From Pseudogymnoascus verrucosus (lineage: Eukaryota): 64,000 nt of DNA. The position numbers were made by a program, and so were the translations under genes. The notes beneath the pieces were generated by a model. That model ran no database searches. It was not told the origin of the DNA and saw only the letters and a list, made by a program, of their open reading frames with translations. Below are positions 38,359 to 55,680 of this stretch, one piece after another (positions within the stretch are counted from its first letter, which is position 1; each line of letters begins with the position of its first letter). The stretch lies in assembly GCA_001662655.1 (NCBI GenBank), contig KV460236.1. The stretch is one strand, 5' to 3'.

Positions 38359-39220
38359 GTTCATTATACGGAGGCGTAAGGTGCCTGAATCTCGAAATCA
38401 CGATTGGAAAAAAGACCGGCGAGAGTCTACATTATGAGGAGTTATCTTGGCAATAAATATCAGAGCTGATTTACGGCTGAGACGGCAGCTCATACATAGG
38501 GTGGCAGAGAGAAGAAATTGCCACAGTGAATCCCACGCGTGTGTTGTGTTTTCCACAGCACTTATGTTTGCTTTAGTACTGGCTTCGGAGTAAAGCACCG
38601 ATTTACCAGGGCCCATGAGCGATACATGATTTCGGAATACCTCGTGCGCGGGTTGAATTTGAGGCGGGACTATTAGCTATGTGTCGTCTTTATAGATTTT
38701 TTTTTCTCAGCTCATTATTTGGATTCGACAAGACGAACCGGCCCAATAGTAAAAGTCGTTACGCGACAAATACAGTTGTAAATACGTTTTAAGAAACTTC
38801 CTCACAGAATTACAATTATGTGCACTCTCTCCACGAGTTTTTGTCTTTGCATTGCAATATTAGCTACGACCATCAGCAAATGAAGCTTCTTGTTCTAAAT
38901 CAAGGTTTTACCCAGTCCATCGGTGTCCGAATAAGCTGCATGAACATACCCTTGTAAGCGTGGCCTCAAGCGCCATACCATAATCCCATTTCAAATTTCG
39001 CGGCGCAAAGTACCCACCTCTCCCCCTCTCCCCTTCCTAATAACCCTAGGAGATTGCGTTCTTTTACTCTCGGCACTCGATACAGTTTCCACCTGCCATT
39101 CAAGCTTTTCTTAGGCGCTCTCTTCGGCGGCGCGCAATATCTGACACCCCGCAATTTCCCCGCCATTGATCCCCAGGAAATTCTGTCGCATATCTTGGCT
39201 TCGATCCACGTTCGCTCAAG

Positions 39221-40945
39221 ATGGCCGAGCTTGCACTCTCCTTGGTGGGCACCGTTGGAGTGCTCGGCCAGATCTTTCAGGGGTGCATTAACGCTTATCA
39301 GATATTCACAACGGCGTCGAATTTGGGTCGAGACTCGGAGCGACTGGTATGCAAGATTAGGATAGAAGAGATGCGCCTGCTGGTGTGGGGGAGGGAGTGG
39401 GGAGTTGAAGAGGGAAAACTCGAAAAATATCTAGGGGAGGAGAGCAAAGCTGGGAATGAGCGCCTGCGAGGACTGGCGATACAGGTGCTGAGCGAACTGT
39501 ATAAAACGATTACGGACCTCGATAAGCTAAAGGGGCGTTACGGGCTCCGAGATGTCGATAACGTTGCACCACAGCAAGAAAAGGGGGCGCTGGAGGGGAA
39601 GGGCGGTAATGGCAATGGGAATGGAAACAACAAAAAGGACAAGCCCGCGCCGGGCGAAGCCTGGAAAGAGAACTTCAAAGATAAATCATTCGCAGAGCGT
39701 TTCAAGTCGGAACTACACTTGCGCGCCAAATGGGTCATCGCCGACAAAGATAAATTCCACTTCTTCCTGCAAGATTTGAAAGACTACAACGATGGGCTTG
39801 AACAGCTCTTCCCGCCCTCCCGCCTCGCGACGCTTCACCGCACATGGCAGAACGAACTCCTCCAAGGAGCACAGCGGGACCTTGCGAAGTTAGGTCTGCT
39901 TGAGAGCGCTAGCAACGGCGTCTACCCGCAGCTAACCACCTCTGCCAATCTGAAGCAACTGCGCATAAATCTAGATTCCAAGCCTACGGCGAATTTCAAG
40001 CCGACGTTCGCCTTAAAGATCCAATGGCCGTTGCTCGAAGTCACAGACAAGGAGACTCGGCGCAGCCTAGCTGCTTATAACAGCCCCTCGGGCGAGAGGG
40101 GAAAAAATGTAGTCATTGAATGGGTTGATTATGACAAAGAGGATCTTGAAGGTCGCTTCCAACATATCAGGCGCATTGACGACTTAGCTCGCATGGTGCA
40201 CTCGGCCTCAGCGCGGCACCCGGATCTCCATACAATTGACTGCCTAGGGTATACCGATGATACGAGCCACTCACGTTTCGGAGTCGTGTATGACTCTCCG
40301 GCTTCCTCATTCTCAACGCTGTATTCGATCATCTCCTCCAACGACTACCGCACCCCTGATTTAGGGGATCGCTTCAAACTCGCCCATAGTCTTGCTGTTG
40401 GCCTGTGGTCCTTCCACTCCCTTGACTGGCTGCACAAGTCGGTTTGCAGCCACAATATCCTCTTCTTTCCGTCTGCCATCTCGGATTCAGCAAGCAAACC
40501 AACAGTAAATGCCGCTCTAGTGCCGGACATATCGTCGCCGTTCCTACTCGGATTTGACTCCTCTCGCCCCGAACAAGTAGTCGAGATGAGCGTGGCTAGC
40601 CGCAACCCGTCGTCGTTGGATCTCCACCGGCATCCGAGCAGTCTGGAGGGGATCGATAGGAAGCCGTATTGCAAGGGGTTCGACATATACAGTCTTGGTC
40701 TCGTGATGCTTGAAATTGGACTATGGAAGATATTGCAAGCTTATTACAAGCCGCACTATACAGCTCAACGGTTCAGGGATCGGGTGGTTGTGGGGCTGCT
40801 GGTCCCAGGACTAGGAAGTAAGACGGGATCCGCATATAGACAGGTCGTGGAGAGATGTTTGGACGTCAAGGACGATATGAGTGGGCTTGAGTGCCACCAA
40901 CTTATGGAATGGGTGGTAGACACCTTGGAGAGCCTGAGGGTTTAA
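39221..40945 (+). CDS. HeLo (prion-inhibition/propagation) domain plus kinase-like (pseudokinase) domain
   Basis: HeLo hallmarks (hydrophobic N-helix, IEEMRLLVWGREWG, KWVIADKDKF..DLKDYNDGL); kinase-like WLHKSVCSHNILFF, LGFD, DIYSLGLVMLEIGLW. Confidence 0.85.
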   Translation: MAELALSLVGTVGVLGQIFQGCINAYQIFTTASNLGRDSERLVCKIRIEEMRLLVWGREWGVEEGKLEKYLGEESKAGNERLRGLAIQVLSELYKTITDLDKLKGRYGLRDVDNVAPQQEKGALEGKGGNGNGNGNNKKDKPAPGEAWKENFKDKSFAERFKSELHLRAKWVIADKDKFHFFLQDLKDYNDGLEQLFPPSRLATLHRTWQNELLQGAQRDLAKLGLLESASNGVYPQLTTSANLKQLRINLDSKPTANFKPTFALKIQWPLLEVTDKETRRSLAAYNSPSGERGKNVVIEWVDYDKEDLEGRFQHIRRIDDLARMVHSASARHPDLHTIDCLGYTDDTSHSRFGVVYDSPASSFSTLYSIISSNDYRTPDLGDRFKLAHSLAVGLWSFHSLDWLHKSVCSHNILFFPSAISDSASKPTVNAALVPDISSPFLLGFDSSRPEQVVEMSVASRNPSSLDLHRHPSSLEGIDRKPYCKGFDIYSLGLVMLEIGLWKILQAYYKPHYTAQRFRDRVVVGLLVPGLGSKTGSAYRQVVERCLDVKDDMSGLECHQLMEWVVDTLESLRV

Positions 40946-50876: not shown

Positions 50877-51151
50877 TCGATTTCATTTATTAGACAATAC
50901 AATATATATACTATACTTTCAATCTCTATGCTTCGTTATATTACCACACCTGCCTATTTAAAATACCTTTGTGGTAAAATTGTATTGTAGCGGTTCTTTT
51001 ATTTATTTCAAATATTACTGTACCAAAAATGTTATCTTTTCATGCTGCTTTCCGAAGGTATATTTGTATTGCTGTAAGTTTAATACAATTTCTAATATGT
51101 TCACCTGACAAAAAAAATTGGTACACTGGTGAGGACACGAGGGTGAGATTT

Positions 51152-51438
51152 GGAAGGCACGAGATGTGATACCGTCGTTCCTTCCTTTTCGCAGTTTTCT
51201 TGGGGGAGCATGAGTTTGATACCAGGAAGGCACGAATGTCTTTGTTCCTTCCTTCCCATAGATTGCTTGACAAAAGTTCACACGGAAGCTGCGAAGGATG
51301 TAGGCGTGATGTAAGGAAGGCACAGGATGCCGCCGTCGCTCCTTCCTTCCTGTAGCTTCCTTGGAAGAAGGTTCGTGGGGAAGGCGCAAAGGACGCAAGA
51401 ACGACAGAAGGAAGGTGCATGATTCCGTCATTCCTTCC
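51152..51438. repeat. Array of four GGAAGG-N(16-22)-CCTTCC inverted-repeat units
   Basis: Arms at 51152/51180, 51225/51247, 51315/51341, 51410/51433. Confidence 0.8.
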
Positions 51439-51550
51439 CTTCTAAATCTTCAAAAGCATCAGGGCAACCTACTTCATCCAGCCTGTCTACTTTTCCCCTC
51501 TGCAATGCTCTAACTATTGGGCATCATAGCTATTATTATCCACGAGGCAA

Positions 51551-54190
51551 ATGGCTCCCCGACCCCGTCACCGCGTATTATATTGGGGAAAATTGGAGTC
51601 GGCTGAAAAGCGCAGAGCCGATTCCGAGAAACTCGCTCATTTTCATGTCACGAATCTTATTAATTTGAGCATACCGCAGTATAGATCGCAGGGCACGCAG
51701 ACTGATGCTGGATGGGAGATACATGTCCCCCACATTCAAGGTGAGTGATAATGCAGTGCCATTGGTTTGCAATACTGATATTGGATAAGCTGAAGTCAAG
51801 CCTGTCGTTAAAAGTAAAGAGAAACCCAAAGAGGCGGAACAGCCCGAGCGTCCGGAAGTCATTGGCACATCCGTTATACGATTACCGAAATTCACCAAGG
51901 GACTGGGAAGGGTAGTTGAACCAGTGAAGCCTTCGGCGGAGACCAAAGGCAAAGGTAAAGCAGTTGAATCATCAAAGCCATCGGATGCCAAAGGTAAAGG
52001 GAAAGCAGTTGAACCATCAGAGCCGCTAGATGCGAGAGGCAAAGGAAAAGCAGTTGAATTATCAGATGCACTGAATACCAAAGGCAAAGGGAAAGAAGTT
52101 GAACCATCACAGCCATCAGAGCCAGCAGATGCGAAAGGCAAAGGAAAGGCAGTTGAACCACTAGAGCCAGCAGATGACAAAGTTAAATACAAGGCGGTCC
52201 AGATGACGGTGCTGCCAGATGATACAGAAGAAAGCAAAGTGGCTGAACCATCAAAACCACTAGATGGCAAAGGCAAAGGGAAGCTACTTGAACCATTAGA
52301 GCCACTAGATGCCAAAGGCAAAGAGAAAGCAGATGAACTACCAAAGCCAGTGGATGCCAAGGGCAAAGGGAAAGCCGACGAACCACCAGAGCCACTGGAT
52401 GCCAAAGGCAAAGACAAAGCCGTCCAAACGACGATGATACACGATGTTAAAGGCAAAAGCAAAGTGATCAAACCATCAAAAACACCAGATGCCAAAGGCG
52501 AAGTGGAACCAGTTGAGCCACCGAATGCAAAAGGCAAAGAGAAAGAGGTGCAGACGACAGAGCTGCCGGATTCTAAGGGCAAAAGAAAAGTAGTCGAACT
52601 ACCAACTCCGCTAGATAGCAAAAGCAAGGACAAAGCGGTCCAAACAACAGAGCTGCCATATCACAAGTATACAGACAAAACAGTTCAAACGCTGGATACA
52701 AAAACCGAAGACAAGGCGGTCCAAACGATGGTGCTGCCAGATACTGAGAACAAAGACAAACCAGTTCAGACGCCAGATAACATAAGCGAGGACATATCAC
52801 CTGAACCACCAGGGTTGCCGGTTAACAAAGATAAAGGCAAAGCTGTTGAACCACTAGGGCCTCCTGATGAAAATGGGAAAGGCAAATCTGCTGAATCGCT
52901 AGGGTCGCCTGATGACAAAGGGGAAAGCTTAGCTGTTGAATCACTAGGCTCGCCCGATGAAAAAGGGGAAGACAAAACGTCTGAACCATCAGAATTGCCA
53001 GTTGACAAGGGAAAAGGTAAAGCAGTCGAACAACCTGAGCCACTAGATGGAAAGGGCAAGGACGAAGCAGTTGAACAACCAGAGTCCCCAGATAGAAAGG
53101 GCAAGGGCAAAGCCAAGAACGAGGAACATGTATCGGAACAAGATGAGATTAAGGAGGCGATAAAGTTGCTCAATGATGAGCACAAGGCTACTGTCTCAGC
53201 ACTGAGACTCTCTTACCAGGAAGCGTTGGATAAGGGAGCTACCGATTCTAGCACGTCACATTGGGAGGAACTTAAGGCAATCGCTCATAACTACCACAAG
53301 GCGGGAGCAAATATGCAGAAGGCGCTTAATGCTGCAGCCAAAAAAACACAGTCTCTAGATGGTAAAGGAAAAGGAAAAGCTGTTGAGGGACAGGAGTTAC
53401 AACAAGGTACGATAACTGACCCACACAGTGATATTTTATTGACCTAGAAAGCTGCATTAGCACCTGAAAATCAGACACCCCGTCAGCAAAGCAAAACTGC
53501 CCCCCATAGAGGCATTGGCAAAAGAACACGACAAGAAGAAGAAGCCTTTCCGCGAACATTTCCACGAGCGCGCCCACGTGGCTTCCCCGGCCCATGGCGA
53601 CCAGATCTGTCACACCCAAGCTGGGACAGGATAGAAAGAATAAATTTTACGGTCATATTCGGTATGGGACCCTAATATAATATGTACGCATATGCTTATG
53701 CTGACAAAATCCAGCCGCAGAGGCATACATGCCACCATTCTGGGAACTCACTGTCCCTACACCATGTGAGCCGCTCGAGAGATATCGCTGCCTATGGAAC
53801 GCGGGACTCAGGCGCTACACCAAATTCTACGAAACCATATTTAAGGAGGAAAAGACGACGGCAGTAGGGCTACCGGGAATGACGCACTTTATTGAGCTGT
53901 TCGAGGGGTTTGTCAAAACTGGCATTTTACAGAGGATGATCCATGCTTCTATGAACATAATGACCCAGCTGATGGACCCAAAACAGAAGGGCAAGTTTCC
54001 CATAAAGAATCTTTGGGACGTGGGAAACCGAGTGGAACAGAACATCAACTACTGGTTCAAAATAAACGTAATATTCCACACACGAATGGTTTGGTATCAG
54101 AGGTTTTATGGCTTGTTATCAGTCCATGGCGAAACCACTCTACCAATTCCACTTTCAATGATTGCGCCATCGAGGGCTTTGCCAAATTAA
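51551..54190 (+). CDS. Unassigned 827-aa protein with ~26 x 15-aa KGKGKAVEP/DKAVQT repeats, helical segment and globular C-terminal domain
   Basis: Exons 51551-51740, 51790-53406, 53461-53661, 53715-54190 join in frame via three phase-1 GT-AG introns (2484 nt). Confidence 0.72.
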
Positions 54191-54240
54191 CAGATAGACA
54201 ATCTCAGTTGGCCATTGGACACTGAAGCTGAGCGAATAGG

Positions 54241-54421
54241 TTGCTTGCAGGGAGAGTGGCTGTCAAAAGGGGTGGACTGTATTGTCTCTAGCGTTTGATA
54301 TATATTGTATAGGGGTTAGGCAAGGAGATAGTTGCCTGGAGGGGCATTGACTGTCAAAAGGGGGCACTGTATTGTCTCTAGCGTTTGTTATATCTTGTAT
54401 AGGGGCTAGGCAAGGAGATAG
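54241..54421. repeat. ~90-bp tandem duplication
   Basis: CTGTCAAAAGGG..ACTGTATTGTCTCTAGCGTTTG..TTGTATAGGGG.TAGGCAAGGAGATAG twice. Confidence 0.9.
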
Positions 54422-54536
54422 CGGCCTCGGCGGCCTCGATGGACTCGGTGGACTCGACGGCCTGAGGCCGTCGAGGCCGTCGTCGTCGCCATAGCGAATA
54501 ATAGTATTGTTCCAATTGTACCATAAATAAACTGGA

Positions 54537-55335
54537 GCCACAAACAACCTCGTGATACAACAATGCCGCTTCCAGTTTGACGATATGCTGCTAAGACAAA
54601 ATCCTTCGCCGAGCCAGTAACGTTTCCTTCCATTTCCGTTTATATCTATAAAGATATCCAGCACCGGCACATAGCAGATGAAGGAGTGCGTTTGGAGCAC
54701 TAGCTGAAGAGAAAGACAAAGACACCGGCTACAAACAATGTGATGCAACACAGCTAACACAGCTGGTTTCAACTTGATGATATGCCGCCAGAACGAAATG
54801 CTTCGCCGAACACACAACACTTTGTTCTATCCCCGTTTATATCTGTAAAGATATCCAGCACCGGAGCATAACACATAAAGGAGTGTGTTTCGAGCACCAG
54901 CTAAGGAGAAAGACAACACCATCGGCCACAAACAACTTTCGTGATGCAACACTCGGCCACAAACAACCTCCGTGATCGTGATGCAACACTGCTGGTTTCA
55001 ATTTGATGGCGCCAAAACAGAACCCTTCCGGAGCACATAACGCTTCTTCCATCTCGGTTTATATCTATAATATTAGCCATCAGTGCATAGCACATAGAGG
55101 AGTGTTTGAACAATCTGCTAAAAAGAAAGACAAAGACATTGGTCACAAACAAGACTCCAACGGAAAGGAGGTTCGAGCTGTGGGAAGAAGATTCCAGTAG
55201 TAGAAAGGAGACAAACAATGAAAAAGCTCAGGGAAGAAAGATGCTATAGCACATAAAGGGGTGTGTTTAGACCACCAGCCAAAGAGAGACACAAACAAAG
55301 CTCCAACGACAAGGAGGTTTCAGCTGTGAAAAGAG
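54537..55335. repeat. Degenerate ~200-bp tandem repeat (3 copies plus a partial fourth)
   Basis: GTTTATATCT(A/G)TAA at 54638, 54835, 55057; ATAGCACATAAAGGAGTGTGTTT-like at 54671, 54868, 55087, 55246. Confidence 0.85.
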
Positions 55336-55680
55336 GTTATAGCCATGAGAATAAGACAAGGAGAAGACTCTGACTGTGAGAAAGAAACTCTTACAACAAT
55401 GGAGATCATGTTAAAATGGTACTTCATCTGTGGTGTGGCTCATACCACAATGAGTCTTTGGCCATGATTGGGCTCAAGCTGGAGTGAGTGTCCAGCTGTA
55501 AGAGGGAGGCTCTGGCTGTGAGGAGGAGACTACAGCCATGAGAATAAAGTGAATACTCTAGCTGTGATAAAGAGTCTCTTACAGCAATGGAGTTCATTTT
55601 CAAATGATACTCCAGCTGTGGTGAGGCTCACACTGAGTCCCCAACTGTGATGGGGCTCAACTAGAATGAGCCTCCAGCCA
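55311..55680. repeat. Degenerate 193-bp tandem duplication
   Basis: AGCCATGAGAATAA at 55341 and 55534; CTCTTACA.CAATGGAG, CTGTGGTG.GGCTCA and GGGCTCAA in both copies. Confidence 0.85.

Follow-up and report, generated by a model that had tools for sequence, protein, structure and literature searches.

The stretch of DNA considered here, called the window throughout, comprises 64 kb of fungal chromosomal DNA from Pseudogymnoascus verrucosus (contig KV460236.1), and its open reading frames (ORFs) encode Nup120, Rad51, BOP1, SURF4, a HeLo-domain protein, and major facilitator superfamily and sugar transporters. Our subject is a gene of four exons at 51551-54190 on the plus strand, which an ORF and splice model reads as 827 codons in frame throughout, and its product of 827 amino acids, the window protein. 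This protein carries a tandem array of 15-residue units, some of which contain the sequence K-x-V-Q-T and may dock the dynein light chain LC8 (DYNLL, Dyn2 or NudG). The gene model matches the deposited proteins P0001 (P. destructans GMDG_01155), P0002 (sp. VKM F-4246), P0009 (sp. 23342-1-I1), P0011 (sp. VKM F-3808), and P0012 (sp. WSF 3629); P0010 is a fragment. Two closer relatives were compared at the DNA level, namely X1, a contig that differs from the window by about 2.6 % and for which 40 of the 82 differences are listed, and X2, which consists of pieces. All three introns run from GT to AG and contain a CTRAY-like branch site. The gene is composed of the following parts:

51551..51740, plus strand: exon 1 (63 codons and 1 nt; ORF and splice model), a conserved N-terminal segment matched in alignment by the N-termini of P0002, P0011, and P0012
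51741..51789, plus strand: intron 1 (49 nt, GT..AG)
51790..53406, plus strand: exon 2, holding the repeat array and the helical hairpin (splice model; frame open over 552 codons)
53407..53460, plus strand: intron 2 (54 nt)
53461..53661, plus strand: exon 3, disordered linker including the conserved KRTRQEEEAFPRTFPR at nt 53520-53567
53662..53714, plus strand: intron 3 (53 nt)
53715..54190, plus strand: exon 4, encoding the C-terminal domain, predicted as helical throughout with four long helices, and a tail that ends in ...LPN; stop codon at 54188-54190

The four-part architecture and the exon structure are common to at least five named Pseudogymnoascus strains; all best protein matches of the locus come from this genus, and no relatives were found outside it other than fragments. 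The locus is a real gene, restricted to Pseudogymnoascus, whose product is mostly disordered. A secreted or cell-wall repeat protein was rejected, as the N-terminus has no hydrophobic signal-like stretch. The deposited model of P0001 begins, in a different frame, at a point that falls inside intron 1 of the window gene and is devoid of the exon-1 segment described below as carrying a TQT site; this difference is probably an annotation error. At the acceptor of intron 1 (51787-51789), three bases including the AG are changed in both X1 and X2, where the next AG, as read from the sequence, lies 6 nt downstream and would keep the frame while dropping two residues, so that this acceptor looks to have shifted between close relatives. 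All full-length orthologues retain the basic-acidic patch KRTRQEEEAFPRTFPR of exon 3, which could be a nuclear-localisation signal or the beginning of the C-terminal domain. A literature search found no paper that names GMDG_01155 and none that joins Pseudogymnoascus with dynein light chain.

The repeats reported in an earlier note on this DNA, made from the letters alone, are real: Tandem Repeats Finder detects a period of 45 nt with 10.4 copies at 51943-52420 and more 45/90-nt arrays at 52801-53113, and parsing by coordinates gives 27 units, where about 26 had been estimated. One solitary unit stands beyond the helical hairpin. The composition of the array is that of a polyampholyte (17.5 % K, 11.8 % E, 11.3 % P; 77 basic vs 86 acidic residues). 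In 7 of its 27 units, here termed Q-type, K-x-V-Q-T/M takes the place of the K-A-V-E-P of the E-P-type units. Six central units of this kind and the sequence RSQGTQTD in exon 1 had been described before and were located at nt 52410-52775 and 51683-51706, respectively, and a degenerate seventh unit at 52185-52208, which had been missed, was added. The motif copies and the array features are listed below, with positions relative to the Q (position 0) in brackets:

51683..51706, plus strand: canonical TQT-type 8-mer RSQGTQTD (residues 45-52 of the translated exon 1)
51861..51959, plus strand: best-conserved disordered segment, residues 88-120, ...IRLPKFTKGLGRVVEP...KGKGK, near-invariant in six orthologues
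51894..53141, plus strand: tandem array, 27 units of about 15 amino acids (residues 99-514; Tandem Repeats Finder and parsing by coordinates)
52185..52208, plus strand: Q-type unit A, KYKAVQMT (degenerate, with Y at -4 and M at +1); KDKAVQTT in P0012 and P0001; D in place of Y197 in X1 and X2
52410..52433, plus strand: Q-type unit B, KDKAVQTT; EDKAVQTT in P0012
52536..52559, plus strand: Q-type unit C, KEKEVQTT; EEKAVQTT in P0012; V in place of E316 (-2) in X1
52626..52649, plus strand: Q-type unit D, KDKAVQTT; slot kept in every orthologue, V and Q identical in 6/6 aligned sequences
52671..52694, plus strand: Q-type unit E, TDKTVQTL; D and K identical in 6/6 aligned sequences, VQT in 5/6
52707..52730, plus strand: Q-type unit F, EDKAVQTM (orthologue alignment)
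52752..52775, plus strand: Q-type unit G, KDKPVQTP (the Pro at -2 is derived in this strain); KDKAVQTP in P0012 and P0001; A in place of P388 in X1 and X2
52833..52971, plus strand: sub-array of ...GSPD.KGE... units, whose copy number varies between close relatives (174 nt more in X1, longer also in P0001)

The window protein contains five copies of the pattern [DS]K.[TVI]Q[TV], whereas 5000 shuffles of its residues gave a mean of 0.008 and never reached five (0/5000), a comparison to be read with the caveat that the copies are repeat units and thus not independent events. The same strict pattern is found six times in P0012, four times in P0009, three times in P0001, and once each in P0002, P0011, and P0010, against shuffle means of at most 0.008. 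Within the tight cluster, the distances from Q to Q are 15, 12, and 15 residues, which leaves linkers of 4-7 residues. The exon-1 site reads RSQGTQTD, VSQGTQTD, or ITQSTQTD in all three orthologue models that contain the exon (P0012, P0002, and P0011); the models of P0001, P0009, and P0010 start elsewhere and were left out of this judgement. A KFERQ-like motif was also considered and rejected, since such patterns do not permit A. For the earlier suggestion that the KGKGK copies could be a second docking or modification array, we found no evidence.

The array behaves like a coding minisatellite, the length of which changes between near-identical genomes. At 52833-52971, the X1 contig goes back 139 letters with 35 letters between, which amounts to 174 nt more than in the window, in frame and corresponding to about four extra units; a second indel in X1, a 3-nt insertion at 51822, is likewise in frame. 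The earlier note had supposed that the ordinary unit drifted into motifs, which is not borne out by the relationships among the units: at the DNA level, the nearest neighbour of each tested Q-type unit is another Q-type unit (5/5), and all six orthologue proteins that possess a repeat region have at least one Q-type copy. DNA identity is 0.71 among Q-type units vs 0.55 between Q-type and E-P-type units, and the gap persists outside the Q and T codons, with 0.76 vs 0.65 for the seven codons before and 0.64 vs 0.48 for the six codons after them. One base change each is enough to convert E to Q (GAA to CAA) and P to T (CCA to ACA or ACG). The Q-type units are an old and distinct sub-family. Since they are present in every orthologue, the simplest history is a single origin before the sampled species split, followed by duplication.

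Natural LC8 motifs are described as [D/S] at -4, K at -3, any residue at -2, [T/V/I] at -1, Q at 0, [T/V] at +1, and [D/E] at +2, and as sitting in disordered segments, often beside dimerisation domains; a phage-selected peptide from the same source reads VSRGTQTE (PMC3078936). Five copies in the window protein fit the natural motif from -4 to +1, and the exon-1 sequence RSQGTQTD resembles the phage-selected peptide. Dyn2 of yeast has the consensus charged-X-G/S-(V/L/I)-Q-T-D/E, and the intermediate chains of yeast carry G, A, or S at -2 (PMC3727929). We counted by hand the 79 binders and 32 non-binders of Table S4 in PMC6607443, where V stands at -1 in 6/79 and I in 7/79 of the binders, and the exact sequence VQT in 3/79 (MAST1, SON, and ZFPM1). 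The earlier statement that LC8 tolerates V or I before the Q agrees with both sources, and, judged by the Dyn2 consensus, V before Q is the rule in fungi, beyond mere tolerance. At the flanks, the binders show D at -4 in 31/79, K at -3 in 21/79, A at -2 in 7/79, E at -4 in 4/79, T at +2 in 4/79, and P at +2 in 12/79, whereas P at -2, M at +1, and Y at -4 each occur in 0/79, and P at -2 is present in two of the 32 non-binders; prolines before the anchor are stated there to reduce the chance of LC8 binding (PMC6607443).

The anchor [TV]-Q-T is present in six array copies and in the exon-1 copy, the remaining array copy having V-Q-M. Favourable flanks and no proline before the anchor are found in KDKAVQTT (twice), TDKTVQTL, and EDKAVQTM, whereas KDKPVQTP (P at -2), KYKAVQMT (Y at -4), and KEKEVQTT (E at -4) deviate from the flank rules. 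By the Table S4 rules, the former four are good candidates, KEKEVQTT would be a fair one, and KDKPVQTP and KYKAVQMT poor ones. The earlier note took the proline-flanked copy to be probably inactive, and KDKPVQTP is indeed the weakest, with a residue at -2 that no listed binder has and for which near relatives carry Ala; its second proline, at +2, is harmless. In the AlphaFold2 (AF2) model of the orthologue P0001, from which the evidence on disorder is taken, residues 26-409 with the motif region have a predicted local distance difference test score (pLDDT) of 30-40 and are devoid of secondary structure. The linkers lie within the range that works in ASCIZ, where LC8 binding is seen with linker lengths of 3, 6, and 9 residues (PMC10046861). 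No match to Dynein_light (PF01221) was found among the 113 ORFs of 110 codons or more that were scanned in the window, a scan that a small intron-bearing gene could escape.

In an alignment of six sequences only, in which P0011 aligns poorly at slots E and F, mean pairwise identity is 0.76 for the core positions -4 to +1 of slots D-F, compared to 0.52 for the other array columns and 0.46 for the linkers that separate these slots; when sets of three 6-column windows were drawn at random 20000 times, 115 of the sets reached 0.76. Slots D, E, and F align in the window protein, P0012, P0001, P0002, and P0009 (5/6 full-length proteins, window included), and slot D aligns in all. V-Q-T is fixed in slots D-F while the linkers vary, in proteins whose repeat regions are 39-58 % identical to that of the window protein. 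Conservation of the QT positions in orthologues, on which the earlier note had made its reading depend, is thus observed in this alignment, and nothing else in the central array is kept as well as the Q-type units. In the disordered part as a whole, constraint is clearest in another segment, IRLPKFTKGLGRVVEP: nt 51884-51959 (residues 95-120) differ from X1 by 10 synonymous and 0 non-synonymous changes among the differences listed. The segment ...GTSVIRLPKFTKGLGRVVEPVKPSAETKGKGK (51861-51959), almost invariant in the six orthologues, matches no known motif assignment.

We propose, at about even chances, that the Q-type units and the N-terminal TQT site are docking strands for LC8. Two chains would lie next to each other, held by several LC8 dimers that zip their disordered centres into a ladder, like Dyn2 on Nup159, and this ladder would pair and space the two C-terminal domains. 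The proposal is plausible and the best available reading. What the analysis shows is the gene, its repeats with the Q-type sub-family, the fit to the LC8 motif, the disorder as predicted, and the conservation; from there, LC8 binding, the ladder, and any downstream role are inferred by motif logic.

Four known systems resemble the arrangement in part. In Nup159 of Saccharomyces cerevisiae, two chains are zipped up by five Dyn2 dimers to form a rod of about 20 nm next to a self-pairing helix (PMC4315244; PMC5963919), and its dynein light chain-interacting domain resembles the window protein in having QT motifs set close together along a disordered stretch, with a linker and α-helices behind them. 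The window protein, however, has no detected sequence relation to Nup159, no phenylalanine-glycine (FG) repeats, no β-propeller, and no Pfam match, and its up to seven array motifs and one N-terminal motif lie inside or ahead of 15-residue repeats. Identity with the nucleoporins Nup159/Nup214 was rejected, there being no Pfam match, no FG repeats, and no PDB sequence match of the C-terminal domain. The Pac11 peptides bound by Dyn2 contain ...SVQTD and DKGIQTD (PMC3727929) and resemble the DKAVQT of the window protein, also in the small residue (G/A/S) at -2; Pac11, in contrast, is universal in fungi and combines a WD40 domain with two such sites, whereas the window protein is genus-restricted and non-acidic at +2. 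ASCIZ/ATMIN possesses 7 LC8 motifs in fly and 11 in human within a disordered domain (PMC5963919; PMC10046861), and many LC8-type motifs with short and long linkers in a disordered domain are likewise seen here; it is, however, an animal zinc-finger transcription factor with mostly TQT anchors, and no DNA-binding domain was detected in the window protein. Finally, ZFPM1 SDKGVQTP, SON RCVSVQTD, and MAST1 RHQSVQTE have the VQT anchor, and ZFPM1 even shares the D-K-small-V-Q-T core (PMC6607443), but these are single sites of animal proteins measured with animal LC8.

If the proposal is true, the gene encodes a new multivalent LC8 client with a clear mode of origin and provides a clean natural example of how an array of short linear motifs is born, by two point changes in one unit followed by duplication; species with one to seven copies would form a natural titration series, and a first handle would be gained on an uncharacterised protein family that includes GMDG_01155 of P. 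destructans, the bat white-nose fungus.

Several observations weigh against LC8 docking. Position +2 is T, L, M, or P in the array copies and never acidic as in the consensus; Table S4 contains the well-flanked non-binders VDRSIQTV, EAKSIQTS, and LDTSIQTE (PMC6607443), and the accuracy of the LC8 predictor is put by its authors at about 78 %, a motif match being a weak predictor. K-A-V is common to the ordinary units, too, so that part of the conservation belongs to the repeat itself, and P0001 reads VQM in slot D. The copy number ranges from one (P0011, P0010) to seven (P0012), and multivalency is not kept everywhere. The hairpin, a possible dimerisation domain, is absent from three of the five full-length orthologue proteins. 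Because X1 and X2 carry the "good" residues D and A at the positions of Y197 (-4) and P388 (-2), both residues are derived in the window strain, which has thus weakened two peripheral motif copies. The motif block 52410-52775 differs from X1 by 4 non-synonymous and 0 synonymous changes among the differences listed; two of the four fall at -2 positions and none at -4, -3, -1, 0, or +1, and the block gives no sign of purifying selection because there is no synonymous change for comparison. It is also less divergent from X1 than the region upstream (4 differences in 366 nt vs 26 in 620 nt; Fisher p 0.006, again among the differences listed), but, with no synonymous change among the four, we do not count this as a sign of constraint on the protein.

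Much of this would be expected if the array were a flexible, charge-balanced spacer, an entropic linker of the PEVK type, in which the Q-type unit is a neutral variant spread by duplication and kept by descent and no LC8 is bound. The richness in K, E, P, G, D, and V with nearly as many basic as acidic residues (77 vs 86) fits this explanation, as do the free change in copy number of both unit types between species and close relatives, the two motifs degraded in the window, the exclusively non-synonymous differences in the motif block among those listed, and the occurrence of K-A-V in both unit types. What it accounts for less well is that V-Q-T stayed fixed in slots D-F across proteins with repeat regions only 39-58 % identical, with linkers changing around it, even though Q and T could each revert by a single base change, and that the independent TQT site of exon 1 was likewise kept. 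We regard such a spacer as possible but rather unlikely; if LC8 does not bind, the locus would be an ordinary fast-evolving disordered repeat protein. The Q-type units might also be functional for something other than LC8, for example another partner or as sites of threonine modification, since the conservation of D-K-A-V-Q-T reveals constraint but not the partner; six consecutive positions, however, fit the LC8/Dyn2 consensus, no other documented motif class was found to fit, and we consider this improbable. A third explanation is that no expressed gene exists here and that the frame, lying between genes in DNA rich in repeats, is an ORF in decay or one arisen by chance. The non-coding tandem repeats on both sides of the locus fit this explanation, and a look-up of sequencing runs listed no RNA, which is a blank and carries no weight; it is highly improbable in view of the architecture and exon structure kept in at least five named strains, the indels that remain in frame, the segment with only synonymous changes (10 vs 0 among the differences listed), and a C-terminal domain 52-86 % identical between species.

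LC8 docking, if it occurs, can be carried further to a more speculative scheme that we consider unlikely as a whole. The protein would then hold perhaps the largest LC8 array so far noted in a fungus, with up to eight sites vs five in Nup159, and would have gained it through amplification of a single mutated unit in a coding minisatellite. LC8 would convert its floppy centre into a rigid two-chain rod, whose length each species would adjust as units are gained or lost, and in the lineage that kept one site (P0011 and P0010) a short coiled-coil-like helix inserted directly behind this site would take over the pairing. In both proteins, a charged segment of about 30 residues, ...KLAKELKAENRRLQEALKFLLKGAEERMR..., which is helix-like by eye, directly follows the single KDKAVQTT at the place where the others have further Q-type units.

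The array is followed by a helical segment and a Trp/Phe-rich C-terminal domain, both of which had been claimed from the sequence and are present in the AF2 models and residue counts. The hairpin is located as follows:

53139..53351, plus strand: helical hairpin (about residues 514-584), two helices with pLDDT 65-74 in the P0001 model (residues 410-480)

It is present in the window protein, P0001, and P0012 (3/6 full-length proteins with the window included) and absent in P0002, P0009, and P0011. In duplex ladders of LC8, a self-association domain of the client usually helps to keep the two chains in register. The C-terminal 157 residues are modelled by AF2 as four long helices with moderate confidence (pLDDT 74.4), and the last 164 residues include 5 W, 12 F, and 7 Y. 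The earlier note could not assign this domain, and nothing specific came out of the checks made: no Pfam family matched any exon, a profile search against the PDB gave no match (best E 0.98), Foldseek returned nothing at E ≤ 0.001, the ESM Atlas contained no usable match, and VIA-align wide led to generic or designed helical bundles with a best Z of 9.4, below the level that is meaningful for helical models with this tool. An exhaustive phmmer search of 1.84 billion representatives yielded four credible relatives (P0003, P0002, P0004, and P0005); P0006-P0008 were dropped as spurious, being repetitive proteins aligned over short stretches. A profile search with the domain added only fragments of its own narrow family, and of 591 pattern matches in metagenome contigs 0 were confirmed. 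By these searches the C-terminal domain is an orphan. Predicted self-pairing of two copies of it scored 0.00, which is no answer and counts neither for nor against pairing.

The gene is flanked by non-coding tandem repeats. Just upstream, at 51136-51440, they are of about 67-94 nt and built on GGAAGGCAC... and ...CCTTCCTTCC pieces. Just downstream, at 54240-54430, a 90-nt unit occurs twice, with one more copy in X1, and a unit of about 197 nt follows at 54559-55350 in about four decaying copies. Elsewhere in the window, the ORF at 39170-40942 (plus strand) encodes a HeLo domain (E 4.4e-42) followed by DUF7580, an architecture of the fungal cell-death/prion type.

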